From a virus: 30,150 bases of DNA. Shown in pieces: positions 3,301 to 19,631 of this stretch. The notes below the pieces were generated by a model. It saw only the letters and a list, made by a program, of their open reading frames with translations. It did not search any database and was not told the origin of the DNA. Where the stretch lies: IMG/VR virus record IMGVR_UViG_3300014208_001418; one strand, 5' to 3'. Positions within the stretch are counted from its first letter, which is position 1. Each line of letters opens with the position of its first letter. Both the position numbers and the translations under genes were made by a program.

Positions 3301-3352
3301 TCACAAATACTCATATATCCTAGACGAAATAAATCAAGTAGTAACTATATAA
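323..3352 (+). CDS. DinG/XPD(Rad3)-family SF2 DNA helicase, interrupted by an intein
   Basis: Q-motif (PFQKEAI), Walker A ESPPGTGKT, Cys-rich Fe-S region, IFDEAHN, motif III LSSTL, EGTDFPG, motif VI QRTGRPVR. ATG 323 is preferred over the ORF-track start at 173, which overlaps the upstream gene. Confidence 0.9.
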   Translation: MTIQSYFPEKTYFPFQKEAIDSIYQAFLSGSEIVMCESPPGTGKTVIAKTFSNFFHKTFILTSSKGLQKQYITKYDDIAKIDGSRNHFCELLPSKRKSEVDCNNIRVPSKSCYLCPKNKEISCPTCENRPSRQVCTHKPLRPEGRLEYTFSELCDYWKNKMTAVESKISVHNYEYLITELKFVGDFKYSRNESKNPDLQDCSIGIFDEAHNLGVKILNQYDIEISDMLLRMSLIDVPNPALYTTNDLWMGWINDLTFSSIPKILKSLEDELVSSTIKIQREKDIVEIKEYLSDLKYKCLTLIKYYKVNKSMWLFEPKTYADGTFHSLKVLPIIVAPFVEESLFQYFDKKLLLSSTLLNPHIIKNDLGLAGRKINYVSVPCPFPVDHRLIYPLNISPFDFDNQEANLPRMVQAIEIILDLFPTKKGIIHCYDEKTRVLTKTGFKFFKDVLLTDEIATLNKQGLLEYQKPINVYNYPYNGDMINIKNQYIDLSVTPNHNMFVNTFNMKGAGTYQTEGLTNMYDSWVFRTAEELMNGTRIHGKKIARKFAINKVCEWKGKEIDFWEIDGEHGRNRITENETVISKRELSKSNVYLSPPKLVKNGVTKKRIPINAWMDFLGWYIAEGYTYYDEKKCIYRVSISQKNIRKTEIPNIVKSMGYECYIREQKSYQTCDDLIISNKNLAKYLIENFGKDCYSKQLTPEILNLSSDLLKRFLTTFIDGDGNKKIRTKEEKWQAYTSSEKLKDQIVEIVLKIGWSSNVWHVEAREELLSINGVTSKSQCRERWIIGINRFFKHGIVIQNSIARHTKIKDMNKVAYTGNVGCVEVPNHIIFVEREGKNAWCGNSNSYYINKYILKNIHSRHFNRIITHHGEASKSYYDAIIEHKSSKSPSVIMSPYLIEGTDFPGDQAEFQICCKLSYDNFVDNPRLKIRKQFDPLYYQWLCSVKEIQRTGRPVRGMEDISPTFHLDSRFLGFVEKNKDILIPAWWQSAIVKPPHKYSYILDEINQVVTI
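1607..2848 (+). mobile_element. Intein (414 aa) with LAGLIDADG homing endonuclease
   Basis: Begins CYDEKTRVLTKTGFK, block B VTPNHNMFV, LAGLIDADG motifs FLGWYIAEG and FLTTFIDGDG, block F VGCVEVPNH, ends WCGN before +1 Ser. Excision restores KGIIH/SNSY. Composition turns purine-rich across this interval. Confidence 0.93.
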
Positions 3353-3847: not shown

Positions 3848-4021
3848 ATGTTTACAAAACAAGAATTGTTTGTCATCCGAAAAGCATTAGATGCTTTTTA
3901 TGACGACAAAACTCCTGAAAAAGAGCATCATCTCGTAATGTCTATCAGAGATAAATGCACAGACCTAATTATCCTAAAAACGAATTGGAACAAAAAACAA
4001 AATCTTTGTGACATACTATGA
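3848..4021 (+). CDS. 57-aa hypothetical protein (not in ORF track), probably leaderless
   Basis: MFTKQELFVIRKALDAFYDD...LCDIL; directly after the promoter; ATGA overlap with the RFC-like gene. Confidence 0.6.
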   Translation: MFTKQELFVIRKALDAFYDDKTPEKEHHLVMSIRDKCTDLIILKTNWNKKQNLCDIL

Positions 4022-5313
4022 ATAACGATATGTGGACAGTCAAACACAAACCAACTTCCTTCAACACAATAAAAGGTAATGGAGAAAATATCAAAAAAGC
4101 AATCAACTGGATAAACACATTCGCATCATCAAAACCAGATAGAAGATTGCTTTTATTATCAGGAGTCCCAGGCACAGGAAAAACTCTTCTTGCTCAAACG
4201 CTAGCAACATCAGGCTCTATTGAATACGTTCATATTAACTGCTCTGCATCTCGCTCTTTTGACGAACTCCGCAATTTAATCCTACCCTACATAGATTCAA
4301 CGGGCATAGAATACACGACAAGAGTAATAGTCCTCCTTGACGAAATCGATGGACAACCCAAAAACTCCCCGATCTGGAAATTCCTCTCTGATAAAGTCCT
4401 CCCCTTTATAACTAATCCTTTTATCGCCACCTGTAATGCCTTATACGAAATTCCAAAAGACTTTCAAGAACATCATTGTAACATCCTATTATTCCGTCGT
4501 CAGTACCACAGTACTATTCGTAATCATCTCCTTGAAATCGCTATGAAAGAAGGCTTTAAGTTAACTACTCAAGAAGCTGACGATCTCGTCTTAGAAGGCG
4601 ATATGCGAGCTTCTATAACAGCTCTGCAAATATACTGCATGTCGGGATTTAAAATCCCACAGCTCCTTCAACATCGAAGCGTATGGACTGAAACTCGTGA
4701 TGCTTTAACTCATAATATCTCAATCCTACCCGATCTCCCTCCCCTAAAAATGCTCGAATTCATCGAAGAGAACGGCAAGCACCGCGTAACAGGCGTAGAC
4801 CGTTACCACTTCTATAACATGATAAATTACGTCTCCTCCCTAATCTCCTCCTACAACGAAGAAGACGCCCTCTTACTCCTTGGGATGATCTCCTGTTCAA
4901 TGACATATCCTCAGCTCCAGCCTGACGAAGACTCTCCATACGTCAAAATCCACGAACCCTCTATCAGCACAAAATTCTTCCTAACCCGAAACCTTCACAA
5001 AACAATCTCCAACCTCTCTCTAAAAATCTGTCCTGATTATCTAACCTCCTCCATTGATTTCTTCGAAAACATCTTCCCTATCCTCCAATATCAATCAATC
5101 AACGATCTCTCATATGCTCGTTCTCTAGTCCTAAAATATTCCCTCGAAAAAGACGAAATAGCCATTCTCCTCGATTCCACTACTAACGACCCCCGAATCA
5201 ACAAGCTCCTAACACCCGACAAATCCCTCACAACCCTCATTCATATTCCCGATAAAATATCACCACCTCTCTCACAAACAGAAACTCTTCCAGAACAGGA
5301 GATGTTCGCATGA
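4018..5313 (+). CDS. rfcL: Replication factor C large-subunit-like clamp loader AAA+ ATPase
   Basis: WTVKHKP (RFC box II), GVPGTGKT, INCSASR, LLDEIDG, PFIATCN, GDMRASITALQ; no SRC motif, as expected for large subunits. Confidence 0.85.
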   Translation: MNNDMWTVKHKPTSFNTIKGNGENIKKAINWINTFASSKPDRRLLLLSGVPGTGKTLLAQTLATSGSIEYVHINCSASRSFDELRNLILPYIDSTGIEYTTRVIVLLDEIDGQPKNSPIWKFLSDKVLPFITNPFIATCNALYEIPKDFQEHHCNILLFRRQYHSTIRNHLLEIAMKEGFKLTTQEADDLVLEGDMRASITALQIYCMSGFKIPQLLQHRSVWTETRDALTHNISILPDLPPLKMLEFIEENGKHRVTGVDRYHFYNMINYVSSLISSYNEEDALLLLGMISCSMTYPQLQPDEDSPYVKIHEPSISTKFFLTRNLHKTISNLSLKICPDYLTSSIDFFENIFPILQYQSINDLSYARSLVLKYSLEKDEIAILLDSTTNDPRINKLLTPDKSLTTLIHIPDKISPPLSQTETLPEQEMFA

Positions 5314-5900
5314 AAACCTTCGATAACGACCTAAACAAAGTCAACCCAAAATTAACTAAAAAAATGGAATCAATCCTAATCGCTCTCGGAATCGACACAA
5401 AATCCGATCACTTCAAAGACACACCCAAACGTTTCATAAAAGCATTAATGGACGCCACTGAATACAAACGTACTCCCGAACCCCGTTTCACCCTATTCCC
5501 AAATAAAGAAAACGTGTCTGGTATCGTGATGCTTAAAAAACTGCGTGTGGTATCCCTATGCTCACACCACTTATTTCCTTGGACTGGGTACGTAACGGTA
5601 GCTTACATTCCACGCAATTTCTTGATAGGAGCCTCAAAGTTCTCCCGCATTATCGATTGGATGAGTGCTTTCCCTAGTGCCCAAGAAATCTTCACTGAGC
5701 AACTTGCCGAATATATCCAAGCAAAAGCTGATCCAATAGGTCTCATGGTAGTGAGCGAAGCCACCCACACTTGCATGGTAGCTCGTGGTGCTAACGAAGA
5801 GAACTCCACACTTACTTATTCTGCTGTGCGTGGTGTCATGTGTGAACCCAAAAATCCTCGTGAAGAAGCTTTAAGCCTATTAAAAATCAAAGTAGGCTAA
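5310..5900 (+). CDS. folE: GTP cyclohydrolase I
   Basis: DTPKRF, SLCSHHLFPWTG, GASKFSRII, AQE, HTCMVARG (Zn ligands C/H/C present). Confidence 0.93.
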   Translation: MKTFDNDLNKVNPKLTKKMESILIALGIDTKSDHFKDTPKRFIKALMDATEYKRTPEPRFTLFPNKENVSGIVMLKKLRVVSLCSHHLFPWTGYVTVAYIPRNFLIGASKFSRIIDWMSAFPSAQEIFTEQLAEYIQAKADPIGLMVVSEATHTCMVARGANEENSTLTYSAVRGVMCEPKNPREEALSLLKIKVG

Positions 5901-6076
5901 AACCTTTTCAGCATCAAAATTTCTTTATTTTTCAATATTTTAAACACGATGAGGCAAAACATCATTTTTCATAACTATTTTCATGATTTTTTTATATACT
6001 GGAAAGACTACAAATAATCTTATTTTTCGCCATCTTTACCCTCACTTCTCTATCAGCAATTCTTTAAAAGCAAATC

Positions 6077-6100
6077 TTTATATACAATGTAGTAGTAGTA
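6077..6100 (+). promoter_or_regulatory. TATA box + GTA-box promoter (copy 2)
   Basis: TTTATATAC-aatgt-AGTAGTAGTA. Confidence 0.75.
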
Positions 6101-6130
6101 ATAATGCTTACAAAAAAGCAAGGTGTAAAT

Positions 6131-6412
6131 ATGACAAAGAAAAATTCAATATCAGACGAAGATAGAAAAACATTTGATGAAACGCTTGATAGCTATATGA
6201 AAGAGAACTTTTTCACAAGAGAATCTAACGAAGTAGAGAAGGTAGAATACTCTCGTGCAGATGCTTTGATGCTTATTGAAACAATAATAATGCAGGGACA
6301 TATCGATATAATCGAAAAAGCACTCGCTGAAGAAGAACTAGGCGTTGATGATAGTGATCCTGAACACATGAAGTTCGTTGAAATACTCAAAAACAACTAT
6401 CCTATACGATAG
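6131..6412 (+). CDS. Small acidic hypothetical protein
   Basis: Open frame from 6104; ATG 6131 has an AGGTG RBS; followed by an oligo-T tract. Confidence 0.7.
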   Translation: MTKKNSISDEDRKTFDETLDSYMKENFFTRESNEVEKVEYSRADALMLIETIIMQGHIDIIEKALAEEELGVDDSDPEHMKFVEILKNNYPIR

Positions 6413-6434
6413 TTCTTTTTTTTTTCTTCTTTTC
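6413..6434 (+). terminator. Archaeal oligo-T terminator
   Basis: T-tract right after the stop; similar tracts at about 8878, 15110 and 18920. Confidence 0.55.
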
Positions 6435-6468
6435 ATTCAATAAAATATATTTCTCTCACATCACAATC

Positions 6469-6493
6469 TTTAAATACTTTGAAGTAGTAGTAG
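6469..6493 (+). promoter_or_regulatory. TATA box + GTA-box promoter (copy 3)
   Basis: TTTAAATAC-tttga-AGTAGTAGTAG, ATG 32 nt after the TATA start. Confidence 0.75.
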
Positions 6494-6500
6494 CAATCAT

Positions 6501-7043
6501 ATGATTATAGGAAAAATAGACGGAATTTCTATCCATTCATCTTTACTTGACAAGATCAATTTAGAATGCATAAAAGCAAAATGTCCTAGCCATCAATGTT
6601 GTTGTGCTAAAGTGCAGCTCACGAAAGCTGACATAGACAAAATACAATCTGTATTTCCCAGGATAAAATCTTCGCTTCCTCCCTCTCTTCCCCCCTTCAT
6701 GCTCTTGGGAGATTTCTACGATAGCAATCATCATATTAACATGCTCAGCTCTACAGAACATCCATGGACTACCTGCATGTTTTTCCAGAACAATCAATGC
6801 TTGCTCGAAAAAGTCGAAGCCCTTCCTATCCAATGCAAAACATTTCCTCTGATCCTCGAAAACGACATTCTTCGCATCTCAACTGAAGACCTCGACTGCC
6901 TCAAAGAAGGCACCACTCCAGCCTTTAAACTCCTAAAGCGAGAAATCATTCAGCTCACTGACGAAGTTTTCTACAACAAGCTCAACACCCTCCTCTCCCA
7001 ACCCGAAACCCAACAAAAATATCTCCATTACAAAATGAGGTAA
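6501..7043 (+). CDS. YkgJ/DUF3109-like cysteine-cluster protein (candidate DpdM-type modifier)
   Basis: ECIKAKCPSHQCCC..LTKADI, TCMFF..CLLE, PIQCKTFP match the CxxCxxCC/YkgJ Cys pattern; same operon as the TGT-like gene. Confidence 0.7.
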   Translation: MIIGKIDGISIHSSLLDKINLECIKAKCPSHQCCCAKVQLTKADIDKIQSVFPRIKSSLPPSLPPFMLLGDFYDSNHHINMLSSTEHPWTTCMFFQNNQCLLEKVEALPIQCKTFPLILENDILRISTEDLDCLKEGTTPAFKLLKREIIQLTDEVFYNKLNTLLSQPETQQKYLHYKMR

Positions 7044-7050
7044 CTATCAG

Positions 7051-7224
7051 ATGAATTCGACAACAACCTTGTCAATATGGAATACATGTAAAGGCTATAA
7101 ACATTTCTGGTCATCATACCTTTACATGATAACCCATCCTCGTAAATGCCTTAAAATGATCCAATTCGCTTCAAAAGTCCTAGTCTATAACGGCATTCCC
7201 AAAGAAATTCAAAAGGAGATGTAA
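7051..7224 (+). CDS. 57-aa hypothetical protein (not in ORF track)
   Basis: Open frame MNSTTTLSIWNTCKGYKHFW...IQKEM fills the gap between the two flanking genes. Confidence 0.5.
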   Translation: MNSTTTLSIWNTCKGYKHFWSSYLYMITHPRKCLKMIQFASKVLVYNGIPKEIQKEM

Positions 7225-7225
7225 A

Positions 7226-8488
7226 GTGCCTTTTAAATTAGTCCCCGCTATTTCCGAACAAGTCCAGAATGTTTTGATCCGTAATAAAGATACGTTAAAT
7301 GATCATGCTCTCGATTGGTGGCAAAAAAGCTCTCTTTTCGAAATAGATAGTGCATTATTGAGTGCATATTATCTCTATATGCGTTGTGGAGATGATTTCA
7401 ACAATTTCAGGCAACAAATAAACTTTCCTTCTGATAAATTATTCATAATAGACTCAGGCGGGTACGAAATCCTCAGCAGGCAGAACACCACTGACAAATC
7501 TCATCTTCAAGTCCTCAAAAACCTTGATCAGCTCAAAGTTCTGCGAATCCAAGAAGCCGTAGCTGACATCGGTTTTATCCTAGATCGTCCTCCATTCATC
7601 ACAACAGTAAACGAAGATGGTTCAAAAGAATTCCTAATCCACAAACAAGACTTCTTCGATTCAGCTAAAGAATTCACAGCTAACAACACTCACATAGCCT
7701 TAGCAAATCGTTCTCCCAATTCCAAACTAAAGCTGTACGGAGTTCTCCAAGGGTATGAGCATTCTCATCTCGAAGATTGGTATAACACAATGAAACAGTA
7801 CCCAGTAGATGGATGGGCATTAGCACCAAAACCTCTTGGAGATTATTTCAATCTCGCCATGTACATTTCTTTTGTCCTTGAACGAGGCATCACAGTTCCC
7901 CTCCATTTCCTCGGTTCAACTAACTTCAACTGCCTAGCCCTAATTATATACCTCTTACGCAAAGATAAAAACAATATCCCCTATTATCCCTCTCTGCTCA
8001 CAGCCGACTCAACATCTCACGATACAGGAGCTAAATATCGCCGATACAACATAAACGGTTCCTACCAAATAATAATCGGTCAGATAGAAGACGTGTACGA
8101 ACAGGACCTTCTTACAGGTCGCATGATCCTCAAAACAGCAAAGAACTCCCAAACAATCCCACTTGACTCCCTTCCCTGTGACTGCCCAATCTGCCAAAAC
8201 ACCACACCCGATATCATGCGTTCAGCTTCAAATACAGGTTCCATAGCTGTTTCCCTTCACAATCTATATCTTCAAAAATCAACAGTAAAAATCCTCACTT
8301 CCCTCATAGCCCATCCCGAAACCTACAAAGATTACGTCCTTTCCTCAATCAAAAACAAATCCGTAGCATCCGACATCTCCCGCTTTTTCACCTTAATCGA
8401 TGACATAATCGCCTATAAGCGTAACTACACAACCACAAAAACTTCTTGGCTCGAAGAAACAACAGAAGCTCAGGACCTATTCGCTTAA
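7226..8488 (+). CDS. TGT-fold guanine transglycosylase, DpdA-like (likely DNA-targeting)
   Basis: IDSGGYE (catalytic Asp), ILDRPP, GVLQG, LHFLG, ADS (second Asp), Zn site CDCPIC-x21-HN; no C-terminal PUA region; GTG start with GGAG RBS. Confidence 0.85.
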   Translation: MPFKLVPAISEQVQNVLIRNKDTLNDHALDWWQKSSLFEIDSALLSAYYLYMRCGDDFNNFRQQINFPSDKLFIIDSGGYEILSRQNTTDKSHLQVLKNLDQLKVLRIQEAVADIGFILDRPPFITTVNEDGSKEFLIHKQDFFDSAKEFTANNTHIALANRSPNSKLKLYGVLQGYEHSHLEDWYNTMKQYPVDGWALAPKPLGDYFNLAMYISFVLERGITVPLHFLGSTNFNCLALIIYLLRKDKNNIPYYPSLLTADSTSHDTGAKYRRYNINGSYQIIIGQIEDVYEQDLLTGRMILKTAKNSQTIPLDSLPCDCPICQNTTPDIMRSASNTGSIAVSLHNLYLQKSTVKILTSLIAHPETYKDYVLSSIKNKSVASDISRFFTLIDDIIAYKRNYTTTKTSWLEETTEAQDLFA

Positions 8489-8492
8489 TACA

Positions 8493-8870
8493 ATGACTAG
8501 AAACGAAATCATTCTCTCTAATAAAATCAATTTCTCTGACATTACTTCTGGAAAAATAGATCACATCATACGTATCGGAGAAAAGAACAAATGGACTCCC
8601 AGCTCTGTCTTTTGTCTCAAATCCTCTCACACCTCTCACGATCACATCCCAATATCCATCCTTTCCTCTGAAAAAATACCCGTATCCCAAATCTCCTCAT
8701 CTCTCCTAATTCGTTGTGGTTACAATTCCCAATCCCATTTTCAAACTCAATGGGAAGATTGGTTCCAAACATGGGACGACACCTCAACAGCATGGCTAAT
8801 CCATTTCGAACTTCACACACCCCTCAAAGACGCAATAACTCCCGAAGATTTCGCTGAATTATTTGCGTAA
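8493..8870 (+). CDS. ASCH/PUA-like domain protein
   Basis: FSDITSGKIDHIIR (variant of the GxKxxxxR motif), CGYNSQSHFQTQW, AWLIHFEL follow the ASCH pattern. Confidence 0.6.
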   Translation: MTRNEIILSNKINFSDITSGKIDHIIRIGEKNKWTPSSVFCLKSSHTSHDHIPISILSSEKIPVSQISSSLLIRCGYNSQSHFQTQWEDWFQTWDDTSTAWLIHFELHTPLKDAITPEDFAELFA

Positions 8871-9111
8871 TAATAGCTTTTCTTTTTTTCGTTTTCAATT
8901 ATAACAGTAAAAACTTCATAGCATATCGATTTTCACCTTATTCTTCTTTTACAACAAATCTCCTTTCACTGCTTATGTCAATCGTCCAATTTTTTCATCA
9001 CAGCGCATATTGAAATCCAAAAACTACACCATCTTCCTCAAAAATCAGATAAGAAGACTTGCAATATAATATATTATAGAATACAGACGTAACCTCAAAG
9101 ATGCAAAAACT

Positions 9112-9140
9112 CTTATATACTATTAAGTAGTAGCAGTAGT
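9112..9140 (+). promoter_or_regulatory. TATA box + GTA-box promoter (copy 4)
   Basis: CTTATATAC-tatta-AGTAGTAGCAGTAGT. Confidence 0.7.
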
Positions 9141-9194
9141 CCTCAAAAACTCACACAGAATTCTCGAAGTGCCCAAAGAGAAAGAGTTTTTCCG

Positions 9195-9238
9195 TTAGTT
9201 CCCAGATAGTTCCCTAATAGTGCCTCAATAGCTTCTTT
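9195..9238 (+). repeat. Four degenerate 11-bp tandem repeats
   Basis: TTAGTTCCCAG / ATAGTTCCCTA / ATAGTGCCTCA / ATAGCTTCTTT. Confidence 0.55.
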
Positions 9239-9269
9239 ATAAACAACCATTTACGGAGTAGTTTAACCT

Positions 9270-12200
9270 TTGAATTATATTGACGATGATACAGAATCTC
9301 CATATGCGCCTACATCTCCCTTAGTTAAACTTAGCAATCTCCTCATAGACGATCATCGTAAAAACAACATAATGCAATATTACAACGCTCATCCTAACTA
9401 TTTACATGGAATAGCATCCTCCCTTTCCATGCTAAACTATTTCGAATCTCACAAAGATAAAACCTATAACGTCATCAAGACAACTCGTGCTGGATTCACA
9501 ACCAATTGTATCCTCTCTTCTCTCTATCTTAACAAACGTGTCCTCTTAGTAGCTCCCACAAACAAGATCCTATACGAAACTATCAGAGATGCATATAAAA
9601 TCTACAGAGACACTATAACTCACGATATGTCAAAAGTAATACGTCCCATCCCGAACAATAAAGACGGATGCTCTTGCGTAGTCAATGCCCTAAAAACAAA
9701 TCCTCAACTAGAAATCCTTCCTTACATCTCCTCTGATGATTGTGCCTCCTGTTCTTCCTCCTATAAAACTTTTCCTATAGGAATGCCTCAATTCGTTTTC
9801 ATGTCAAATCAAAGCACATGCGTAGTAAAAACAATGCTCGAAGAACACGAACAACAACGCTACGACAATCACCCTCCTGATGTTCTCACCATAACATACG
9901 ACAAGTTCTCCTCCCTATCTTCCAACGCCAAGGACACCCTATTCAAATCCCTTATTGATAAAGTCGACATCATAGTTTTTGATGAAATTGGTGATTACCT
10001 CTCCAAATCATTCAACGGCTTCGAATTCTTCACAGAAATAACTGATTGCTATAACAACATCACTAAGCAAGACTCCTCAATCCTAAAAGATTATTTCATC
10101 AACACGATTCCCCTCATAAAATCCCCCTCTTCCAAGAAAATCATAACCCATCTCCTAAAAACCTATATCTTTCCCTTCCTAGAAAAATCCCTCACTCCCG
10201 CCTCATCAGGCTCCTTTCCACGCCTTCTCCTAAACCCCCTAACTTTCGAACCCATATCCGATAGCGTAAAACTCGGTCCAGTTTCAAAACAGATGAGTGC
10301 ATCAAAACAAGTCATCCTATCCAAAAAATACCGTGAATATTACCAAGTCATAGAAGACCTAGCCATCGCAAAAGAACCTACAAAGCTCATCGAACTCTTA
10401 ATTCACTTTCTTGACCTCATGACTAAAAAACAATTCCTTCTATACGAGCAATCCACAACTCGTTATCACCCAACCCGTCAAACCTCCAAATCTCTCTTTA
10501 TCTCCAGTGCTAAAGACGAACTCGTATCCAACCTAAATAACTGGTCCTTACCCGATAAAACTATAATCTTCTCAGATGCTACAATGCCCTCCCATAACCT
10601 CCAGAACTATACAGCTCGCAAAATAAAGAACATCTTCTATGGCGATCCCGCTAAAAACAACAAATCCCTTCTCATGTTCCACGATCCCACTATTCCCCAC
10701 TTCTCCAAAACCCTTTACTTCAACAACGTTCCCTTTCGTAATCTACTTCTCTCCCGCATTGAAACCTTCCTCTCCCAAAATTATTATGGCAACGAAGTCA
10801 TATGGTGCCCATCCAAAGACATAGCAACAGATCTCTCCCTAACCCTAAATCGCATGAACATTCCGACCTGCACTCACCTCAATCCCGATCCCAACTCCGT
10901 TCTCATAACCTATTTCGGTTCCATATTCACTCGTGGAGTAAAATCCGAAAGACGCTTCCAAATAATCCTCGGCAAAGCCAACAAGCCCAAAAACTCCTTC
11001 AAGCACATCGCCTACATGCGAAGAGCAGACTGGGATTTCCTCTCTCCCCAAGACCTGAACCAACTCTCAGCAAAAGAAAACATCCCCTTCGAAGAATTCA
11101 AAGACCTCATAACCGACTTCAACCAAAACATAGCTATCCCCCTACGAAAAACAAATGACTTCTACAACGACTTAACCATCTTCAAAGACCTCCCTCCAAA
11201 CCTCACAACCTATTTCCAACACTTCTCCGATTCTATTCAAAAAGAAAAGACATATATGGATACTTGGCAAGCCGCCTCCAGAGCCAAAAATCCCACAGGC
11301 GAAACCCGATCTGTCAACGTCTGCATTGGCTGGACAGAATCTGACCTACACGAACTCCTTCAATGGGGTTCCAATACTTCCATCTCCTATTCTATCTCCA
11401 CTCATAAACGTCTCCTTAAAACCCAACGCAACTCTATACCAACCCCTCCCGTCATCTCCAATCCTGACATCTCCTTTATCCGTCACTGGCTATCAGGTTG
11501 CGAAATCCCCCAATCCTATATCGGTTTCAACGAATCCTTCTTAGCAGGTTTCCGTGAACTCATAATCGAAAAAGAACGCATAACCCTCGAAGAACTCTGG
11601 TCAGCTCTCCAGCACAACAACCTCGAATTCTCCCATTCCTCCGATACATTCAACAACGGCTATCTCATAGGTGCTGTCAATGCTCTCCTCTTTTACGATA
11701 TTGGAGACGATATCACAGTTGAAAAAGTAGTTGATTCCGATCCCACTTCCCTTATCTTCGAATACACTCCCTCCTCTCCCAAACCCCGTTCCAAAAGATT
11801 TTCAATAAACACCTCCGAATACCTAAACATACTTGAAGTCCTGCGAGCCATTCATCTCTTCTCTCCCAAAAATCCCACTGATCCAATAACCTATTCTGAC
11901 ATTCGTAATTTCATCTCCAAAAAGAAAATTCCTACTTCACTTCTCCACGAACTATGGGAAATCATCATATACCAAGATTTATTCGCAGGTTCAACATGGT
12001 TAATCCCCCTAGACACCGAGACAATCATAAAAACTACATCCCCCTCCCTAGAACAAAATCACCTAATATCCCAATCCCAATCCCTATTCTCAGGTGACGA
12101 ACATCTCTTAGTCGAACATATAATCAATTGGTATTACAACGAACCTCTCATCCACGAAATCGATGTATTTTCAATCTCTGACTCACATTCCTCCTTCTAC

Positions 12201-12341
12201 GTCAATTCCCACACTCATTCAATTCTATCCTCTCTCTTATCCTCCCCATCTTACCTCCATCTCCAAGAATACGGTCTGAACTGCGACATAGAAAAAGTCA
12301 ATAATAACATAATACTCACTCGAAACACAATCGTCTACTAA
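9270..12341 (+). CDS. Large divergent SF2-helicase-like protein with degenerate Walker A (possible replication or origin-binding protein)
   Basis: KTTRAGFTT (motif I-like, no Lys), LLVAPTNKIL (Ia), LTITYDK (Ib), IIVFDE (II), FSDAT (III), TRGV (V), QAASRAK (VI); TTG start with upstream GGAG. Confidence 0.6.
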   Translation: MNYIDDDTESPYAPTSPLVKLSNLLIDDHRKNNIMQYYNAHPNYLHGIASSLSMLNYFESHKDKTYNVIKTTRAGFTTNCILSSLYLNKRVLLVAPTNKILYETIRDAYKIYRDTITHDMSKVIRPIPNNKDGCSCVVNALKTNPQLEILPYISSDDCASCSSSYKTFPIGMPQFVFMSNQSTCVVKTMLEEHEQQRYDNHPPDVLTITYDKFSSLSSNAKDTLFKSLIDKVDIIVFDEIGDYLSKSFNGFEFFTEITDCYNNITKQDSSILKDYFINTIPLIKSPSSKKIITHLLKTYIFPFLEKSLTPASSGSFPRLLLNPLTFEPISDSVKLGPVSKQMSASKQVILSKKYREYYQVIEDLAIAKEPTKLIELLIHFLDLMTKKQFLLYEQSTTRYHPTRQTSKSLFISSAKDELVSNLNNWSLPDKTIIFSDATMPSHNLQNYTARKIKNIFYGDPAKNNKSLLMFHDPTIPHFSKTLYFNNVPFRNLLLSRIETFLSQNYYGNEVIWCPSKDIATDLSLTLNRMNIPTCTHLNPDPNSVLITYFGSIFTRGVKSERRFQIILGKANKPKNSFKHIAYMRRADWDFLSPQDLNQLSAKENIPFEEFKDLITDFNQNIAIPLRKTNDFYNDLTIFKDLPPNLTTYFQHFSDSIQKEKTYMDTWQAASRAKNPTGETRSVNVCIGWTESDLHELLQWGSNTSISYSISTHKRLLKTQRNSIPTPPVISNPDISFIRHWLSGCEIPQSYIGFNESFLAGFRELIIEKERITLEELWSALQHNNLEFSHSSDTFNNGYLIGAVNALLFYDIGDDITVEKVVDSDPTSLIFEYTPSSPKPRSKRFSINTSEYLNILEVLRAIHLFSPKNPTDPITYSDIRNFISKKKIPTSLLHELWEIIIYQDLFAGSTWLIPLDTETIIKTTSPSLEQNHLISQSQSLFSGDEHLLVEHIINWYYNEPLIHEIDVFSISDSHSSFYVNSHTHSILSSLLSSPSYLHLQEYGLNCDIEKVNNNIILTRNTIVY
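12257..12341 (+). repeat. 85-bp direct repeat, copy 1 (3' end of the helicase-like gene)
   Basis: 72/85 identical to 14022-14106, no gaps (counted by eye). Confidence 0.9.
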
Positions 12342-12363
12342 TTCCATTAACTAAAAAATAAAA

Positions 12364-12407
12364 AAGGACTGTTTATCCCTCTTTACCTTAAAGATAAAAC
12401 AGTCTTT
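12364..12407. terminator. Inverted repeat between convergent genes
   Basis: GACTGTTTATC ... GATAAAACAGTC with A/T-rich flanks. Confidence 0.5.
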
Positions 12408-12449
12408 CAGCTCTTTAAACTACATTAATTTTCCAATTATTCATCTTTA

Positions 12450-13802
12450 TCACACCACCTCTTGTAATACTACGTTATCTATAGTATATGTACTTCCATC
12501 TGTAGCTGTCCTAAGACTGAACATTAGTCTTCCATCGCTCATAGTTGTACTTGGAGTCACAAAATCAACGCTATGTGTTGTTTTTGTTCCTGTCGGAGTA
12601 AATCCGTGATCAGGCATATACACAGTAAATGGAGAAACATGTTTTATAAGTCTAACAGTTACATATTGCGGATTTGACGAATAAATATCAAATTTCAGAC
12701 GATATTTCTTATTCGCCTTTAAATTTATCGGAGTCTGATATACTTGATTCGCAATATTAGTTCCTGTTATCTGCATACTATATTCTCCATTAACTATTTT
12801 GGCAGATCCCGATCCATAAAACACCCATGGATATAATGATGTCGTAAATGCCGAATTCGAAACTAGATTCGATGTCGTAACAGGAGTCTGAGTCACTATA
12901 GGCGTAGGAGGTAATGCAATTAGTTGAGAGCTGTAAATCCTGATATAATCAATATCCATATAAGCAGGAAGAGTACTTGCGCTAGCACAATCAGGCCAAG
13001 TAGAACCGCAAGTTCCGCTCCATGCACCCATACCAATTTTCATCTTACTTACTTCCGAAGTTTTCCATGTTGATGTCTTTTTAACTTGTCCATCAATATA
13101 CCATGTTAATTTATCTCCTTCCCACTCAAACGCATATATATGAAAATCACTAGACCAATCCCCTGTCACTTTTGTAGTATCATACTGCACAGGCCGATTA
13201 TAAATTTGTATTAACCAATTTGTAGTAGGATTTCCACCATATGTTTCAGCCAATAGTATTTCAGGAGGCCAAACTCCATCTAGTCTATACAATCCAATAT
13301 ACCCATCAGTACCAAATCCTTTCGGCATTTTAGCTCTAACTTCCCATCTACCCTGTGTCAAACCTGAACATTTCGTATTCGGCTCATTATCAAGTCCTCC
13401 ACCAATATATTTTCTCCCAGTAGACGGATTCATAGCAATACCCAAATGAAGTTGACCATTACTTACTGTAGTCATACTTGACATAAATCTAGTATTTGAC
13501 GTAGCTCCATCCTGATCATAATTATTATACACTTTCCATTTAGTCTGATCAATAGGACCATTAAATTCTTCTCCACACAACAAAGTCCACTTAGATGTCG
13601 TCGGTGTAGAAGTCACTGTAGGAGTTATTACAGGAGTTACAGGATCATTTGTGCATCTCGATCCATCCCATACTGTTCCTGTAGCGCATGATGAAGCTGT
13701 CGGAACATTAATCACCAACAACCCTATCACTAATAGTAGCAATGTAGCTATAATCGATCTACTATTATTATTTACCGTATTTATAATTTCATTTCCAGAC
13801 AT
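12450..13802 (-). CDS. Secreted or membrane-anchored GH16-like glycoside hydrolase with C-terminal CBM4/9-like module
   Basis: Hydrophobic N-terminus, P/T linkers, EEFNG..KW, GRWEVRAKMP, WPPEILLAE, DFHIYAFEW, WYIDG, MDIDYIRIY; C-terminal NLVSNSAF..IDNVVL; ATG 13802 with AGGTGA RBS. Confidence 0.88.
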   Translation of the reverse strand: MSGNEIINTVNNNSRSIIATLLLLVIGLLVINVPTASSCATGTVWDGSRCTNDPVTPVITPTVTSTPTTSKWTLLCGEEFNGPIDQTKWKVYNNYDQDGATSNTRFMSSMTTVSNGQLHLGIAMNPSTGRKYIGGGLDNEPNTKCSGLTQGRWEVRAKMPKGFGTDGYIGLYRLDGVWPPEILLAETYGGNPTTNWLIQIYNRPVQYDTTKVTGDWSSDFHIYAFEWEGDKLTWYIDGQVKKTSTWKTSEVSKMKIGMGAWSGTCGSTWPDCASASTLPAYMDIDYIRIYSSQLIALPPTPIVTQTPVTTSNLVSNSAFTTSLYPWVFYGSGSAKIVNGEYSMQITGTNIANQVYQTPINLKANKKYRLKFDIYSSNPQYVTVRLIKHVSPFTVYMPDHGFTPTGTKTTHSVDFVTPSTTMSDGRLMFSLRTATDGSTYTIDNVVLQEVV

Positions 13803-14021
13803 TTTTATCACCTTTTTTTTGGTTTATCTATTATAGCCGAAAACCTTATCTGTCTCAACTATAGTATCCTTTAACTCCAAAAAAGCTTATATACTTTTGG
13901 TCAAATTTTTTATTTTCCCATTCCCATTTTCACACCCCAAAATTCCTATTATTTCTCTCTCCCTCTCCCTCGCCTCCCCATCTCCCACTTCTCCTCCCCC
14001 AACATCCTCCCCCTCTCCTCC

Positions 14022-14106
14022 CCATCTCCAAGAATACGGTCTGAACTGTGACATAGAAATACGCTCTGACAATATAATCCTCACTCGCACCACAATCGTC
14101 TATTAA
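14022..14106 (+). pseudogene. 85-bp direct repeat, copy 2: orphan 3' end of a homologue of the helicase-like gene
   Basis: HLQEYGLNCDIEIRSDNIILTRTTIVY* versus HLQEYGLNCDIEKVNNNIILTRNTIVY*. Confidence 0.8.
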
Positions 14107-14177
14107 AAATTCAATCAAAAAGACTTCTATACGATATGTTTATATCAAGCAACTCTTTATGTCTATTGTGATCAAAC

Positions 14178-14333
14178 ATGTTTTTTACAGACAAATCAGT
14201 CAAGGATGCACGAAAAAGAATAATAGCATTCAACAAAAGAAATCCAGATAAAAAATTAAATCCCAATTCAATCAAGTTAGTTGGCAAAAAAGATAAAGAC
14301 GGATATGGAACATATAGAGCAAAACTATTATGA
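14178..14333 (+). CDS. 51-aa basic microprotein (not in ORF track)
   Basis: MFFTDKSVKDARKRIIAFNKRNPDKKLNPNSIKLVGKKDKDGYGTYRAKLL; TTTATAT about 40 nt upstream and a GTGA RBS-like site. Confidence 0.5.
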   Translation: MFFTDKSVKDARKRIIAFNKRNPDKKLNPNSIKLVGKKDKDGYGTYRAKLL

Positions 14334-14493
14334 TTTCTTCGTCTTGACTGCAACCACGAGATCCTACAAATATCATAAAAAATTAAACTAGTAAACGTTA
14401 ACTGTGACAGCTCGGAAAGACGAGCACTTGCTTTTACTCATTTCTAACTATTTCAAACTAAAACTTTATATACCAAACCCTCATAATTCCCTT

Positions 14494-15105
14494 ATGAACA
14501 AATCCCTTATAGTGTTAATATTCCTAGCACTAACAATAGCTCCAGCAATAGCTTCAGCCGATCCGATCAATGAAACAAAAGCTATCTATAACCCAACTAT
14601 CCTTCCCGACTCCCCCCTATACAACATAAAAATCTCCCTCGAAAACTGGATGATCGATCATCAATATCTCCTACTTCCTGATAATAATCAAACAAGCATT
14701 TCTGCAAAGCGAGTAGCCTTTATCCAGCGTCGCATCATAGACACTCAGCGTATGATGAGTGGAAAAGTAGATATCCACGCAATAAATAACTCCATATCTC
14801 ACATGCAAATCGCTATAATGAAGCTTAATGGTTCCACAAACGATGAAATCAAATCCTTCCGCAACTCCCTCAAAATAATGACCAACAAGACTACCTCTCC
14901 TCAGCTCAAATCTCTCTTCAACAAAAATCGCATCGAACTCATCAAAAAACAACAGCAAATCCTCTCATCTGACTTAAACGAATCTGTAATCAACCTTCAA
15001 AATCCTCAAACCTTTGAAGTTTCCCAGCAACTCTCAAACAAAATAAAGTCCCATCAACAAGAACTCTACGACCTAGAAAACACAATGAGAACCCTTAACT
15101 CTTAA
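14494..15105 (+). CDS. Secreted helical protein, DUF5667-like
   Basis: Signal peptide MNKSLIVLIFLALTIAPAIASA; ILPDSPLYNIKISLE motif; TTTATATA about 30 nt upstream of ATG 14494. Confidence 0.65.
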   Translation: MNKSLIVLIFLALTIAPAIASADPINETKAIYNPTILPDSPLYNIKISLENWMIDHQYLLLPDNNQTSISAKRVAFIQRRIIDTQRMMSGKVDIHAINNSISHMQIAIMKLNGSTNDEIKSFRNSLKIMTNKTTSPQLKSLFNKNRIELIKKQQQILSSDLNESVINLQNPQTFEVSQQLSNKIKSHQQELYDLENTMRTLNS

Positions 15106-15260
15106 TCTATTTTTTCCTTTTTTTTATTCCTTATTTTTCTCATTTCAATCCTATTTCAATCCCATTTTAATCCTTTTTCATTTCTTCTCTATCACCTTTC
15201 TTAACATTTTTCTCTTCCAAAACTATATATACTACAAACTCATTATCTCATTCATTCATC

Positions 15261-18152
15261 ATGACAAAAACAGCACAAGACCTTGAAAAAGAGTACATCC
15301 TTGAGATCATAAACAGAGCAGGTCATCCCATAAAAGCAGGAGAAATTCAACAGCTCGGTGGTATGCATCTCAAAGAACTCACCAAAAATTCCCGCATCGA
15401 ATCAGGAAGTGCTGACCCCTCCGACCCCCAAAAAACCAAAGAACTTTATCGCCGTCAAATAAACCGCATCGGCTTCCAGCTCTGTGCCTCTTCCCTTCTC
15501 AAAGAAAAAGATTCTAAAACAGATCAAGGCTTAACAGGCACCTTTATCTCCATCAACGCCAATTACGTTCCTTCCTCATCCACATCCTCTCCCCCCCCCT
15601 CCTCTTCCACTCCCAAAAAATCCTCAACTACAATAAAACCATCTGTAAAAATATCTGACTCTTCAGATATAACAGATGAAATGATAACATCCTCCTATAA
15701 AGCAATACAAACTGGCGATCCTCAGGACCCTCTATACGTAAGTTCCTTATCCCAAAACGTAAATCAAGATGTAGCAAATGCTCTCAGTCAAAACGCAACT
15801 AAAGCTAGTGAAACAAGAAGTAGAATAATCAATAATTTAGGATTAAAACAAACATCATCTAGTATTAGTATAGTAGCAACTGCTACAAATGATTTCATAT
15901 CTAGATATTCTTCATCTGCTTCTCCCACCTCATCTCCTTTCACAGTCTCCGAGCAAGACATAGTAGATGCCTTCAATAACTATGGCACTAAAAGTAACTT
16001 TTCTACAGAGGAAGTGAGAGTAAAAGCACAAGGTTGGGGTGTGACTCAGTTTACTAATATCACAGATAAAATCCTTCTCGATAAAAACGTAGTCGGCAGT
16101 ACAGAAAATCGGGCCATAATAACCCAAGCAATCGAAAACTTCAAAAACAACACTTCTTCCTCAAAAGACCTGACTGATGCATCTCAAATCACAGATCAGG
16201 ACATCGTAGATGCTTATAATAGTTCAGGAAATAGAACCACTTTATCCATGGAGACGATAAGAGCTAAGGCTAAAACTTGGTCTAATATTACTATTGATAG
16301 TGTCGTAGAAAAAATCATATCTGACAAAGGTATAGATTCTACTGTAAGAAACATAAAGATAATACATCGAACAATTGATAATTTCGCAAATGACCTCTCC
16401 TCTTCCAACACAGGTGGCTTAGTCTTAACCGATCACACTGAAATAACAGATCAGATGATAATGAATGCTACCATTGACGAATTTAATCTATCTGCGTCAG
16501 CAAATACAAACTCAGTAAAGCAAGTATTACTGCAAGATCAAATGCACGACATCCCCATCATAAATATGATAATTCTGTCAAATGACATAGCAAATACCAA
16601 ACCCAATGCAAAAATAATCTTAACAGCTATTGACCTCTTCGCAGGAAGAGTAACTTCTGAGGCCCCAACTTCACCCGTTTTCTCCGATACCTCATTTCCA
16701 GTCTCCATAACTAAACCCAAAGACATCTCCGATTCCATGATAGAAACAGCCTTCAAAGATAACTGGAACTTTGAACCTCTATCATGGACTAAAAAACAAT
16801 ACGCTGCCACTATAATGAGTAATGATCATCTCTACTCAGACATTCTCAAATCCATCTTCAAGCTCTATAAATATCGCAAAACTCAAAAGAACACTGACAT
16901 AATCGCCTCAGCCATAATCGAATATGCCTCCCACGCAATTGAATTCGGAGATATCCTATCCGTAATCTCAATCATCGATCCCTCCATAAACACCCAACCC
17001 AAAGCCTCAAAATATATCATCGACCTATCTAACAATGACCAACCCGCCTTCGAAACCCTACTCCACAAACTCCTCAAATTCACTTCATTCCCACAAACTC
17101 AATCAAATAACTTCTCAGCCTCTTTTGCAATAGGCAGACTCGCTATCAGTTCAATGAAACCCTCTCCCTCCTCTTCCACATCCCAAACAACCTTATCCCA
17201 ACCTCCCACTCCCGCATCCGTTATAACCATTGATCCTCGTATAAAAGTCACTAATGACTTCATGACTAAACACCAAAACAACACCCTCTCCTCAGCAGGA
17301 AAAAACACCCTATACGAAATAACCACTTTAATCCCCCACCTCGATTCCCTAGTTCAGCATCTCCAGTCCTCCAAAGACTACTATGAACTCCACCACCTCC
17401 TCTCAGAGTTCACTCAAAACAATCAGCTCTCCCTAAATGATTGGAAATTAATTCAAGCCCACAAATCTACAGGGACCACCCAGCCCATCTCCCCAACCAA
17501 CCTTCCCATCTTCCAAAAACTCAAACTCGTAATCAATCGCCTCGACAAAATCCCCAACACCAATGAAAGAGCCCAGCTCATAAAACTCTTTAACAACTTC
17601 CCTTTAACCGATTCCGTATCTCACTCCCAAATATCCATCATAGACTCAAACTTCGCAAGACTCTCTAACCTCCCAACCTCTCCCCTTCCCTCAAAAGACC
17701 TTCTCTCCAAAAAGCTCTCCCTCCTTAATACTCTCCCCCTTTCAGACTCAGAAAAGCGCATCGTAACTCAATCTGAGACCCTCTTAAACGCTGACAAGCT
17801 CTCAATCCCTAACGAACTCATAATCGATAACATTCTTCGTTCTCACACATCTGACATTCCCCCTGAAATCCTAGAATACTCTCCCTCTCACATCTCTTTC
17901 GCCCCCATCATCTCTCTCCAAGAAAAACATCTTCGCAAGATCGCTTCCCATATCTCAATCGATTCCTCCTCTCGAATCTCCTCCCAGATCCGCGAAGTCT
18001 TCACATTCCAAGACGAAGACATAGAAAAACTCCATACCCAACTCCTCTCCCAACGGGACACCGAAGTCGATGAAGCCCTAATCTACATCTTCCACAGCGA
18101 CCTAATCGACCCAATAGTCCTCAAATTAATCAACAACTTATTAAAAAAATAA
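15261..18152 (+). CDS. Large hypothetical protein with wHTH-like N-terminus and 5-6 internal repeats of about 80 aa
   Basis: 963-aa ORF with upstream TATA box; recurring I(T/S)D..I..A ... T..N..II..AI..F units. Confidence 0.8.
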   Translation: MTKTAQDLEKEYILEIINRAGHPIKAGEIQQLGGMHLKELTKNSRIESGSADPSDPQKTKELYRRQINRIGFQLCASSLLKEKDSKTDQGLTGTFISINANYVPSSSTSSPPPSSSTPKKSSTTIKPSVKISDSSDITDEMITSSYKAIQTGDPQDPLYVSSLSQNVNQDVANALSQNATKASETRSRIINNLGLKQTSSSISIVATATNDFISRYSSSASPTSSPFTVSEQDIVDAFNNYGTKSNFSTEEVRVKAQGWGVTQFTNITDKILLDKNVVGSTENRAIITQAIENFKNNTSSSKDLTDASQITDQDIVDAYNSSGNRTTLSMETIRAKAKTWSNITIDSVVEKIISDKGIDSTVRNIKIIHRTIDNFANDLSSSNTGGLVLTDHTEITDQMIMNATIDEFNLSASANTNSVKQVLLQDQMHDIPIINMIILSNDIANTKPNAKIILTAIDLFAGRVTSEAPTSPVFSDTSFPVSITKPKDISDSMIETAFKDNWNFEPLSWTKKQYAATIMSNDHLYSDILKSIFKLYKYRKTQKNTDIIASAIIEYASHAIEFGDILSVISIIDPSINTQPKASKYIIDLSNNDQPAFETLLHKLLKFTSFPQTQSNNFSASFAIGRLAISSMKPSPSSSTSQTTLSQPPTPASVITIDPRIKVTNDFMTKHQNNTLSSAGKNTLYEITTLIPHLDSLVQHLQSSKDYYELHHLLSEFTQNNQLSLNDWKLIQAHKSTGTTQPISPTNLPIFQKLKLVINRLDKIPNTNERAQLIKLFNNFPLTDSVSHSQISIIDSNFARLSNLPTSPLPSKDLLSKKLSLLNTLPLSDSEKRIVTQSETLLNADKLSIPNELIIDNILRSHTSDIPPEILEYSPSHISFAPIISLQEKHLRKIASHISIDSSSRISSQIREVFTFQDEDIEKLHTQLLSQRDTEVDEALIYIFHSDLIDPIVLKLINNLLKK

Positions 18153-18167
18153 ACAGGTGATAAACAA

Positions 18168-18497
18168 ATGAATCGAACCCCAAAACCGAAAAAAATGTCA
18201 GCCGAGCTATTAAATCCTTCCAGACTCTATGACATAACAGTACACTCACCAAAACAAGGTGGATATAGTGCAGATATTATCGAAGGCAAAATCAAAACTG
18301 AATCCGGAATTTTTCTTACAACCTTTTATCGTGAAGGTAAATCATTCGGTGCAGAAATCTATACAGGTTCTAATTATATTGTAGGATCGAAAAAACGTTC
18401 ATGGTCTCGTAACTATCCTTCTCTTAGTGATCTCCCATATAAATGGAAGTTAGTTATTCTGAGATTGAAAGAAATTCATGACAAAACATCATTTTAA
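18168..18497 (+). CDS. Hypothetical protein
   Basis: RBS context AACAGGTGATAAACAAATG. Confidence 0.75.
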   Translation: MNRTPKPKKMSAELLNPSRLYDITVHSPKQGGYSADIIEGKIKTESGIFLTTFYREGKSFGAEIYTGSNYIVGSKKRSWSRNYPSLSDLPYKWKLVILRLKEIHDKTSF

Positions 18498-18524
18498 TAC
18501 ATAAATAAAAACAGGTGATAAACA

Positions 18525-18914
18525 ATGCCCAGACCAAAAATTGAACAAAAAACAAAACCAATAATAGCAGGGCTTATATCCTTAGCCTTGCTAATAGTTG
18601 GTATATACTTTATTGTACCAGCAGTAACGAACTATGAAATAACTCTCGCATCAGCCTTCATACTATCTGCTCTTCTCGCAGTATCAATATCCTTAGCAAT
18701 CGCAGCCGAAGACTTGACTGATGAACTCCTTCGTACCAAAAATCTAGGATCTCTCGTAGAGATGATCGTAATCTTGCTCTTAACCCTCATCATCTTTGCA
18801 TATCTCCTAGACTTGTTCATGATAGCTCCAATGTCAGTTAAATTATTAGTATTGGCAATAACAGTCGTAGTCGATAAGCTTTCAAAACCCATAACTAAAC
18901 TATTAAATCTTTAA
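18525..18914 (+). CDS. Small membrane protein (about 4 TM segments)
   Basis: Four hydrophobic stretches; RBS context AACAGGTGATAAACAATG, nearly identical to the previous gene. Confidence 0.8.
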   Translation: MPRPKIEQKTKPIIAGLISLALLIVGIYFIVPAVTNYEITLASAFILSALLAVSISLAIAAEDLTDELLRTKNLGSLVEMIVILLLTLIIFAYLLDLFMIAPMSVKLLVLAITVVVDKLSKPITKLLNL

Positions 18915-18961
18915 CTTCCTTTTTTTATTTTTTTTCTTATTTTTTCTCTCTTATCGCAATC

Positions 18962-18985
18962 TTTAAATACTTTGTAGTAGTAGTA
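18962..18985 (+). promoter_or_regulatory. TATA box + GTA-box promoter (copy 5)
   Basis: TTTAAATAC-tttgt-AGTAGTAGTA. Confidence 0.75.
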
Positions 18986-19003
18986 TAAATACAAGTGAAA
19001 ATC

Positions 19004-19228
19004 ATGCTCAAAACCCTTAAAGAACTCAGAAACGAATTAGGACCAAAAATGATTGAGGTTGAGGGAGGGGGATTCAGAAATCCTTACTCAGCATCAGAAT
19101 CCACATCTCCCCATCCCTATCGCTCCAGAGCCCTTGACGAGGCGGTGAAGTTCTTTACTGCCAAGGAACTCGGAGAAGAACGCAGAGTAAAACACCTAGG
19201 TTCAAAATGGAAGAAACTGGAATGTTAA
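19004..19228 (+). CDS. Small hypothetical protein
   Basis: Follows promoter copy 5; start is ATG 19004 or GTG 18995. Confidence 0.6.
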   Translation: MLKTLKELRNELGPKMIEVEGGGFRNPYSASESTSPHPYRSRALDEAVKFFTAKELGEERRVKHLGSKWKKLEC

Positions 19229-19515
19229 ACGATTCCCCCGAAGAAATCCTTTCCTTCCTCCAAGAGCGTAACGTTATAACTCTCCACAAAGAGAAAATAA
19301 CGTTTTCCCCTTCTTTCATAAAAAACGTCATAATTCCCTCCTCTCTCGACCTTGATACAGTTCTCTATGACTCCTTTATTTTCATGCATCTTTCCGTCTC
19401 TTCAGAACCCATATCCAGTTCAGACCTTGAAAAACACTTCGCAATAATCACCTCCCTCCTAGAAAAATACGGAGTCGAAGATGTACAAGCTCAACAAGAC
19501 TTATTCGCTTCTTGA
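19207..19515 (+). CDS. Hypothetical protein ending in QQDLFAS
   Basis: Overlaps the upstream stop (alternative ATG at 19222); shares its C-terminal motif with the RFC-like and TGT-like proteins. Confidence 0.65.
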   Translation: MEETGMLNDSPEEILSFLQERNVITLHKEKITFSPSFIKNVIIPSSLDLDTVLYDSFIFMHLSVSSEPISSSDLEKHFAIITSLLEKYGVEDVQAQQDLFAS

Positions 19516-19631
19516 TTGTTCGCTTAATTTTACTTTTTTCTATCCCATTTCTATTCCATTTCTATCCAAAATATTTGTCCAAAACTATATATACTGCTGT
19601 CGCATTTATTGCTTAATTGGAGAAAAACAAC

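Follow-up and report, generated by a model that had tools for sequence, protein, structure and literature searches.

In eukaryotes, the maintenance DNA methyltransferase DNMT1 is brought to PCNA at replication forks by its PCNA-interacting protein (PIP) box, and in phage T4 the C-termini of gp43 and gp55 are the tails that bind gp45. PIP boxes lie at the extreme termini of proteins and bind in a way that has been conserved from phages to humans, and in archaea one such peptide (QxxhxxAA) is common to many DNA enzymes, including family-B DNA polymerase (PolB), the RFC large subunit (RFC-L), Fen1, RNase HII, NucS and NreA (PMC2737543, PMC4929162). DpdA enzymes are held to modify DNA with 7-deazaguanines after its replication, and the replacement of a third or all of the guanines in some viruses is unexplained. 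In the DNA of the cultured halovirus HVTV-1, preQ1 takes the place of about 30% of G (PMC6884629), and the gene HVTV1_69 encodes DpdA4 (Hutinet et al. 2023, PMC10516641). Here, we analyzed a 30,150-nt stretch of viral DNA (IMG/VR record IMGVR_UViG_3300014208_001418; hereafter called “the window”) from an archaeal virus-like element, the replisome genes of which (PolB and RFC) are archaeal or viral in type. Unrelated proteins of this element carry the same short tail, [DE][LM]FA, at the C-terminus, which we interpret, with a probability of roughly 0.7, as a lineage-specific, shortened sliding-clamp docking peptide. Clamp-binding tails as such are already known; the sequence variant described here and its clients, a DpdA-like enzyme and a protein with the ASCH fold, are new. 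An earlier reading of the same DNA, made from the letters only (hereafter, the sequence-only reading), knew of no clamp-recruited DpdA, and our full-text literature searches likewise found no paper that ties DpdA to a clamp or to PCNA.

The C-terminal tail and its carriers

The window belongs to a 148,445-bp metagenome contig (ENA ERZ27249449 k141_1704922, reverse strand), and together with its upstream DNA it forms 45.9 kb of assembled sequence. Four tailed open reading frames (ORFs) had been reported in the window, three of them as RFC-like, TGT-like and ASCH-like; all four are present at the expected positions, on the plus strand, and the three identities hold. The first, at 4018-5313 (431 aa), is an RFC large-subunit-type clamp-loader ATPase according to its profile matches (NCBIfam RFC large subunit, 7e-28; PHROG clamp loader, 5e-29), and ends PEQEMFA, with the QEMFA codons at 5296-5310. 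The second, at 7226-8488 (420 aa), ends EAQDLFA (QDLFA codons, 8471-8485) and is a DpdA-like enzyme with the fold of tRNA-guanine transglycosylase (TGT), as its sequence and predicted structure indicate. It matches the Pfam TGT family at 33.8 bits, over the cut-off, the NCBIfam tgt_general family at 35 bits, under the cut-off, and the PADLOC TGT profile weakly. The zinc site CxCxxC...H is intact, with C318, C320, C323 and H345 invariant, and the AlphaFold2 (AF2) model, with a predicted local distance difference test (pLDDT) value of 89.5, has as its best PDB matches ArcTGT and TGT, the archaeosine and queuine tRNA-guanine transglycosylases (probability 1.0). BLASTP detects no similarity between this protein and HVTV-1 DpdA4.

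The third carrier, at 8493-8870 (125 aa), starts 4 nt downstream of the TGT gene and ends FAELFA (AELFA codons, 8853-8867). It has no Pfam match, the Pfam ASCH hidden Markov model (HMM) included. Its AF2 model (pLDDT 84) adopts the PUA-like beta-barrel of the ASCH fold, and the best Foldseek matches are the ac4C amidohydrolase YqfB and the ASCH domains 3s9x and 5guq, with a probability of 1.0 and template modelling (TM) scores of 0.5-0.68. The role of base reader that had been assigned to this protein was a guess, and its closest structures are amidohydrolases. The fourth carrier is a small helical protein of 102 aa at 19207-19515, which ends AQQDLFAS (QDLFAS codons, 19495-19512) and has no match in Pfam, PHROGs or PADLOC. 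It is conserved: its syntenic 87-aa orthologue in the sister element L003 ends ...GVEDVEEKMNLFA, as compared to ...GVEDVQAQQDLFAS in the window. The sequence-only reading had further suggested looking for a polymerase and a clamp of the element. The polymerase was found upstream and is itself the fifth carrier, an intein-containing PolB of 1293 aa that ends EEYDLFA, with its stop codon 376 nt upstream of window position 1; no clamp was found in the DNA screened, as described below.

The tails comprise the last 4-6 residues of the carriers and follow the pattern x-[DE]-[LM]-F-A in the window, with a single aromatic residue and a Gln that is not conserved among orthologues. In the AlphaFold models, residues 414-420 of the TGT-like enzyme and residues 112-116 of the ASCH-fold protein have pLDDT values below 50 and form low-confidence flexible segments beyond the folded domains. 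The codons of the tails vary among the carriers, and the sharing of the tail is therefore not a DNA repeat.

Could the shared ending reflect chance, compositional bias or a gene-calling artefact? The pattern used for counting, [DEN][LIM]F[AL]S?, was defined post hoc, after the tails had been seen, which speaks for such an explanation. In the 45.9 kb, 5 of 58 gene-like ORFs end in this pattern, against 0.015 expected from composition (binomial P ~5e-12), and none of the 103 spurious out-of-frame ORFs does. The enrichment that the sequence-only reading had proposed to look for by a scan of the full contig is present in these 45.9 kb. Together with the conservation of the tail in four protein families, whose orthologues are 40-60% identical, these counts effectively refute such an explanation, and we regard its probability as negligible.

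Conservation in orthologues and sister elements

The tail is conserved at the protein level on unrelated DNA-acting proteins, as had been claimed. All 13 RFC-L orthologues (39-56% identity) carry it, with the endings LEMFA, LEMFL, MDMLA, EDIFA, DDLLA, LDIFS, EDIFL, EDMFL and LDIFQ, and cellular RFC-Ls are without it. The TGT homologues with at least 45% identity keep the tail in 13 of 15 cases, and their penultimate Phe is at least 90% conserved. The ASCH orthologues end SDIFA, DDIFA, EEDLFA, IEDLLL or IADFFA. Among the PolB orthologues, 8 of 9 keep the tail, and the close relatives end MDLFL, MNILL, LDIFN, MDIFL, IELLL or DDFFA. The next-nearest PolBs, labelled Woesearchaeota, Pacearchaeota and Nanoarchaeota, end in PIP boxes (for example KQMTLGDF, KQTKLF and KQKTLFDFT), and a Pacearchaeota Fen1 ends KQKGLDKWF. 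The tail thus occupies the very site where the cellular archaeal PolB carries its PIP box: the element type reads DLFA, DLFL, DIFL, DIFN or DFFA, as compared to KQxxLGDF, KQxKLF or KQKTLFDFT in the DPANN type.

Sister elements with the same gene order occur on a 184-kb JGI contig (Ga0180732_1000025; L003/L005) and on a 71-kb NCBI contig (JBGGGW010000028.1; L042/L044), and have 7-9 carriers per ~35 kb. In these elements, N6/N4 DNA methyltransferases are also tailed (EEDLFL, YMELFA, QMDLFL and YMDLFL), as are a 340-aa protein (DENIFA) and a 124-aa protein (MMELFA). The element family was not found in IMG/VR, GenBank phages (at the DNA level) or GTDB species genomes. Proteins without the tail in the element and its sisters include FolE, the RFC small subunit, a DinG-like helicase, a PD-(D/E)XK nuclease, MoxR, the vWA protein and the glycan-degrading enzymes. 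FolE, a GTP cyclohydrolase I that catalyzes the first step of preQ0 synthesis, is encoded on the plus strand at 5310-5900 (Pfam GTP_cyclohydroI, 1e-43), 1.3 kb upstream of the TGT gene. This enzyme is biosynthetic and does not act on DNA, and its missing tail fits a DNA-directed role of the tail.

The motif tracks the true C-terminus, as a natural fusion illustrates. The TGT homologue P0015 (646 aa; NCBI, 16-kb contig) has an extra C-terminal domain of ~220 aa fused on; the sequence KKLFD is left internal at the old end, and the added domain has a new tail, LDKLFG, at the new end. In summary of these observations, the motif exists, is strictly C-terminal, is conserved, is restricted to the named proteins and, as shown next, co-varies with the PolB tail.

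Covariation with the polymerase tail

Does the tail of the transglycosylase follow that of the polymerase in other viruses? We compared the TGT/DpdA tail with the PolB tail of the same genome in seven non-redundant genomes. The summed score is 93, as compared to 39.7 ± 12.8 for re-paired genomes, and none of the 1854 derangements reaches the observed value. In three metagenomic loci, the TGT gene lies directly 5′ of the PolB gene (the PolB identities were confirmed), and the two endings are alike: KTIWD with KNIFDF, NLLDYY with EDLFEY, and QPSLLTF with QQKSLLSW. In some of the co-varying lineages the tails are canonical PIP boxes, the last pair being an example. The PIP consensus Q-x-x-[LIM]-x-x-[FYW]-[FYW], which the window tails do not match, is matched or nearly matched by distant relatives in the same TGT family (QPSLLTF and STLSDWI, for example).

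Moreover, a distant relative, the IMG/VR phage G001, has a T4-like replisome, in which a gp44/62 loader occurs together with a gp45-type clamp (L035:1890-2675; phrog_223, 9.5e-10). The PolB of this phage ends LDNLF, its TGT-like protein TSSLF, its uracil-DNA glycosylase LLENLF and a 98-aa protein GDGDLF; LDNLF with SSLF is a further example of matching PolB and TGT endings. For comparison, T4 gp43 ends SLDFLFG and T4 gp55 ends SLDFLYEAND.

The same data bear on a different idea, in which the C-terminal tail marks replication proteins for degradation or for docking to the proteasome, in the manner of ssrA-like (...LAA) or HbYX signals, and so times their turnover. The HbYX motif is a hydrophobic-Tyr/Phe-X pattern fixed at the last three residues, which the hydrophobic-aromatic-small pattern at the free ends of the carriers resembles, and the same element has a MoxR AAA+/vWA module. 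However, HbYX needs a fixed penultimate aromatic residue, whereas the register of the Phe varies: the window has LFAS, G001 has LF, and distant TGTs end KYF or DFF. Nor would a signal of this type be likely to stand in for the PIP box of PolB and RFC-L, or to change together with canonical PIP boxes. We consider this explanation very improbable.

Comparison with described clamp systems

The tail shares several features with the archaeal PIP box: its location at the extreme C-terminus on a flexible linker, the homologous position in PolB and RFC-L, the use of one peptide by many DNA enzymes and, in related viral lineages, canonical boxes on the same TGT/PolB pair. It differs in that the hydrophobic residue adjoins the Phe instead of lying three residues apart. 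The aromatic residue is single, a conserved Gln is missing, and the last residue is usually Ala or Leu. The carriers differ as well: they include a DpdA-like transglycosylase and an ASCH protein, neither of which is a known client of PCNA. Like the gp45-binding tails of T4, it is a C-terminal acidic-hydrophobic-Phe-small peptide on the polymerase and other clients (YDLFA, QEMFA and QDLFA, as compared to SLDFLFG and SLDFLY). Only in the distant relative G001 are such tails combined with a gp45-type clamp. Unlike the gp44/62 loader of T4, the loader of the window is of the RFC type with separate small and large subunits, and the DNA-modifying glucosyltransferases of T4 have no such tail. As a system, the bacterial beta-clamp motif QL[SD]LF is not matched: the window replisome is of the archaeal/viral type, and no DnaN was found in the DNA screened.

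The best cultured relatives of the window RFC-L are those of Haloarcula tailed viruses. HVTV-1 (Druskaviridae) has a syntenic module comprising RFC-S, a RecB-type nuclease, PolB, a methyltransferase, RFC-L, Que genes, FolE, HVTV1_69, MoxR and vWA. Seven of its proteins (KC117377.1; genes HVTV1_69, 87, 89, 90, 91, 92 and 99) end in [VP]L-x-[FWY]: PolB in GGVLSW, RFC-L in QSVLDF, the methyltransferase in TDVLDF, an HNH endonuclease in DDVLDY, two hypothetical proteins in EDPLDF and DDVLGF, and HVTV1_69 in DNVLEF. PolB, RFC-L, the methyltransferase and DpdA4 thus have a common C-terminal tail, as in our element; the papers that we consulted do not mention it. The systems differ in the tail itself, [VP]L-x-[FWY] as compared to [DE][LM]FA, and in the capsid genes that HVTV-1, as a tailed virus, possesses, none of which is seen in the window. 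When the element ORFs were compared with HVTV-1 by BLASTP, only PolB, RFC and FolE were recovered. No HVTV-1 protein has a Pfam PCNA match, although HVTV-1 is reported to have a distant clamp homologue (PMC4889955). The occurrence of the same kind of signature in a cultured virus makes the idea testable at the bench, beyond metagenomic sequence.

Search for the clamp

The proposal that the tail is the docking peptide of the element's own sliding clamp stands in part. Clamp docking is the best-supported reading, on the grounds of the PIP-box position and the covariation with PolB. One peptide on the polymerase, the large subunit of the clamp loader and DNA-modifying enzymes is the signature of clamp clients. 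The free C-terminus on a linker, the position taken by the PIP box in the cellular homologues and the covariation with PolB tails, some of them canonical PIP boxes, point in the same direction.

The outcome of the search for the clamp itself is the first of four points that weigh against clamp docking. The Pfam and PHROG screens covered every mid-sized ORF without an assignment, both in the window with its 15.7 kb of upstream DNA (L004/L006) and in ~70 kb of sister-element DNA (L003/L005 and L042/L044). They yielded neither a clamp gene (Pfam PCNA_N, PCNA_C and DnaN, PHROG clamp) nor a gp45-like ORF. Second, structural prediction yielded no positive case. A complex prediction with the Nanoarchaeum PCNA (PCNA_NANEQ), used as a stand-in for the cognate clamp, and residues 381-420 of the TGT-like enzyme gave a score of 0.02, which we count neither way. 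Third, the tail departs from the canonical QxxhxxAA spacing and lacks the conserved Gln. Fourth, the tail is missing from several DNA enzymes that the element encodes, namely the DinG-like helicase, the PD-(D/E)XK nuclease, the possibly XPF-like nuclease and the 1023-aa helicase-like protein. As for the clamp gene, viral clamp loaders never occur without their own clamps (Kazlauskas et al. 2016, PMC4889955), and by this rule a diverged clamp of the element is plausible though unseen.

That no clamp was found among the nearby genes screened also favors another partner for the tail, a different replisome hub such as the helicase/primase, the single-strand-binding protein or the conserved 1023-aa and 963-aa proteins. 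The tail is acidic and ends in Phe plus a small residue, a make-up comparable to that of T7 gp2.5 and gp4, whose acidic tails end in Phe and bind the T7 polymerase, and the large conserved proteins of the same module have no assigned function, the 1023-aa protein being 60% identical between elements. In contrast, the polymerase and the large subunit of the clamp loader carry the tail at canonical PIP positions, the co-varying tails of related lineages include canonical PIP boxes, and G001 has a gp45-type clamp. We therefore judge another hub to be unlikely, and sliding-clamp docking remains the reading that we prefer.

The 1023-aa protein is encoded at 9270-12341. It has no Pfam, PHROG or PADLOC match; its language-model neighbors include clusters of ResIII/DEAD helicases, and it may be a replicative helicase or primase-helicase. 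The internal QDLFA that had been pointed out in this protein is present on the plus strand (11973-11987), embedded in ...ELWEIIIYQDLFAGSTWLIP..., a hydrophobic structured stretch. We rejected it as a member of the tail system, to which it is probably irrelevant: it is non-terminal, lies in a structured region and is not conserved, as it aligns to NNIFE in the 60%-identical orthologue.

Proposed mechanism

Clamp loading: The x-[D/E/N]-[L/I/M]-F-[A/L] C-terminus would be a short linear docking motif on a flexible linker, derived from a PIP box or a T4-type tail. A ring-shaped sliding clamp, of the element or of the host, would be loaded by the element's RFC-type loader, composed of RFC-L and the small subunit, for which a tail-less RFC-small-type gene (338 aa) lies 12.7 kb upstream.

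Tail docking: The tail would then insert into the hydrophobic pocket of the clamp. The polymerase, RFC-L, the DpdA-like enzyme, the ASCH-fold protein and the small 102-aa protein, as well as the methyltransferases of the sister elements, would alternate on one clamp.

Modification: In this manner, 7-deazaguanine insertion and methylation would take place on newly replicated DNA, directly behind the fork. We infer both that the partner of the tail is a clamp and that the tethering couples modification to replication. The arrangement would resemble that of DNMT1, in which DNA modification follows replication because the modifying enzyme is tethered to the clamp, although DNMT1 belongs to another domain of life, has an internal PIP box in its N-terminal region and performs different chemistry. 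The further suggestion, that the tethering separates element DNA from host DNA, is unsupported; viral and host DNA are alike to a clamp (PMC4889955), and the separation is therefore no consequence of the tethering.

A bolder version of this mechanism, which we regard as doubtful, assumes a private, highly diverged clamp of the element, the pocket of which has co-evolved with the [DE][LM]FA tail to give an orthogonal clamp-ligand code. Such a clamp would carry enzymes of the element alone, host PIP proteins would be excluded, and high-density 7-deazaguanine replacement would be clamp-dependent. The riders would be DpdA, the methyltransferases and the ASCH-fold protein, which may process the inserted base. 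A private clamp fits the rule that viral clamp loaders are not found without their own clamp (PMC4889955). If replacement is clamp-dependent, this would also explain the lack of activity of DpdA3 and DpdA4 enzymes expressed on their own in E. coli (PMC10516641).

A DpdA tail that changes in step with the polymerase tail offers a concrete, testable mechanism for guanine replacement, in which the transglycosylase rides the clamp behind the fork. If it is correct, the list of clamp clients grows by an enzyme that exchanges bases, a protein with the ASCH fold and the methyltransferases of viruses. It also suggests that DpdA3 and DpdA4, which have resisted reconstitution in E. coli (PMC10516641), may be reconstituted by supplying the cognate clamp and loader.

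Other features of the element

Nearly all genes of the window are on the plus strand, where C strongly exceeds G. The GC skew lies between -0.2 and -0.64 in nearly the entire window (1-30150) and flips only at the low-GC insertion sequence (IS) region at 28-30 kb. This region contains an IS607-type unit (28303-30133), in which a serine resolvase gene (Pfam Resolvase, 2e-19) overlaps a TnpB/Cas12f-like gene (OrfB_IS605 and TNB domain). The Logan assembly ends ~700 nt past this unit.

The DinG/XPD-like helicase at 173-3352 (PADLOC typeIV_DinG, 2e-37) has an insertion of ~460 aa bearing a LAGLIDADG domain. The insertion looks like an intein, since the 564-aa orthologues of the sister elements are without it; the upstream PolB likewise contains an intein. 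Among the few large minus-strand genes are those for a GH16 enzyme with a CBM4_9 module (12450-13811) and an alginate lyase (26794-28017; 3e-49). An element whose replisome is of the archaeal type would not usually carry such glycan-degrading enzymes. The segment at 19617-26697 contains a MoxR-type AAA+ (AAA_5) gene, followed by genes for acidic disordered proteins and a CoxE-type vWA protein, and HVTV-1 carries the same AAA-vWA pair downstream of DpdA4.

Among the known PCNA clients is the crenarchaeal XPF. The element encodes, ~14 kb upstream of the window (L006:1012-1821), a 269-aa protein with C-terminal HhH2 repeats (Pfam HHH_5/HHH_2), which ends ...TPVTDVI, with no Phe tail. This protein may be XPF-like, as its N-terminus resembles an ERCC4-type nuclease by eye, a likeness that is not an HMM match. 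Finally, a second recurrent C-terminus (...AEIKYL, ...ATIKYL, ...SEIKYHG and ...NTGYHG) is found near the replication genes, on proteins without an assigned function (L004:3444-3959, L004:4056-4898, L003:4070-4489 and L042:8453-8872), and could reflect paralogy or another docking motif.

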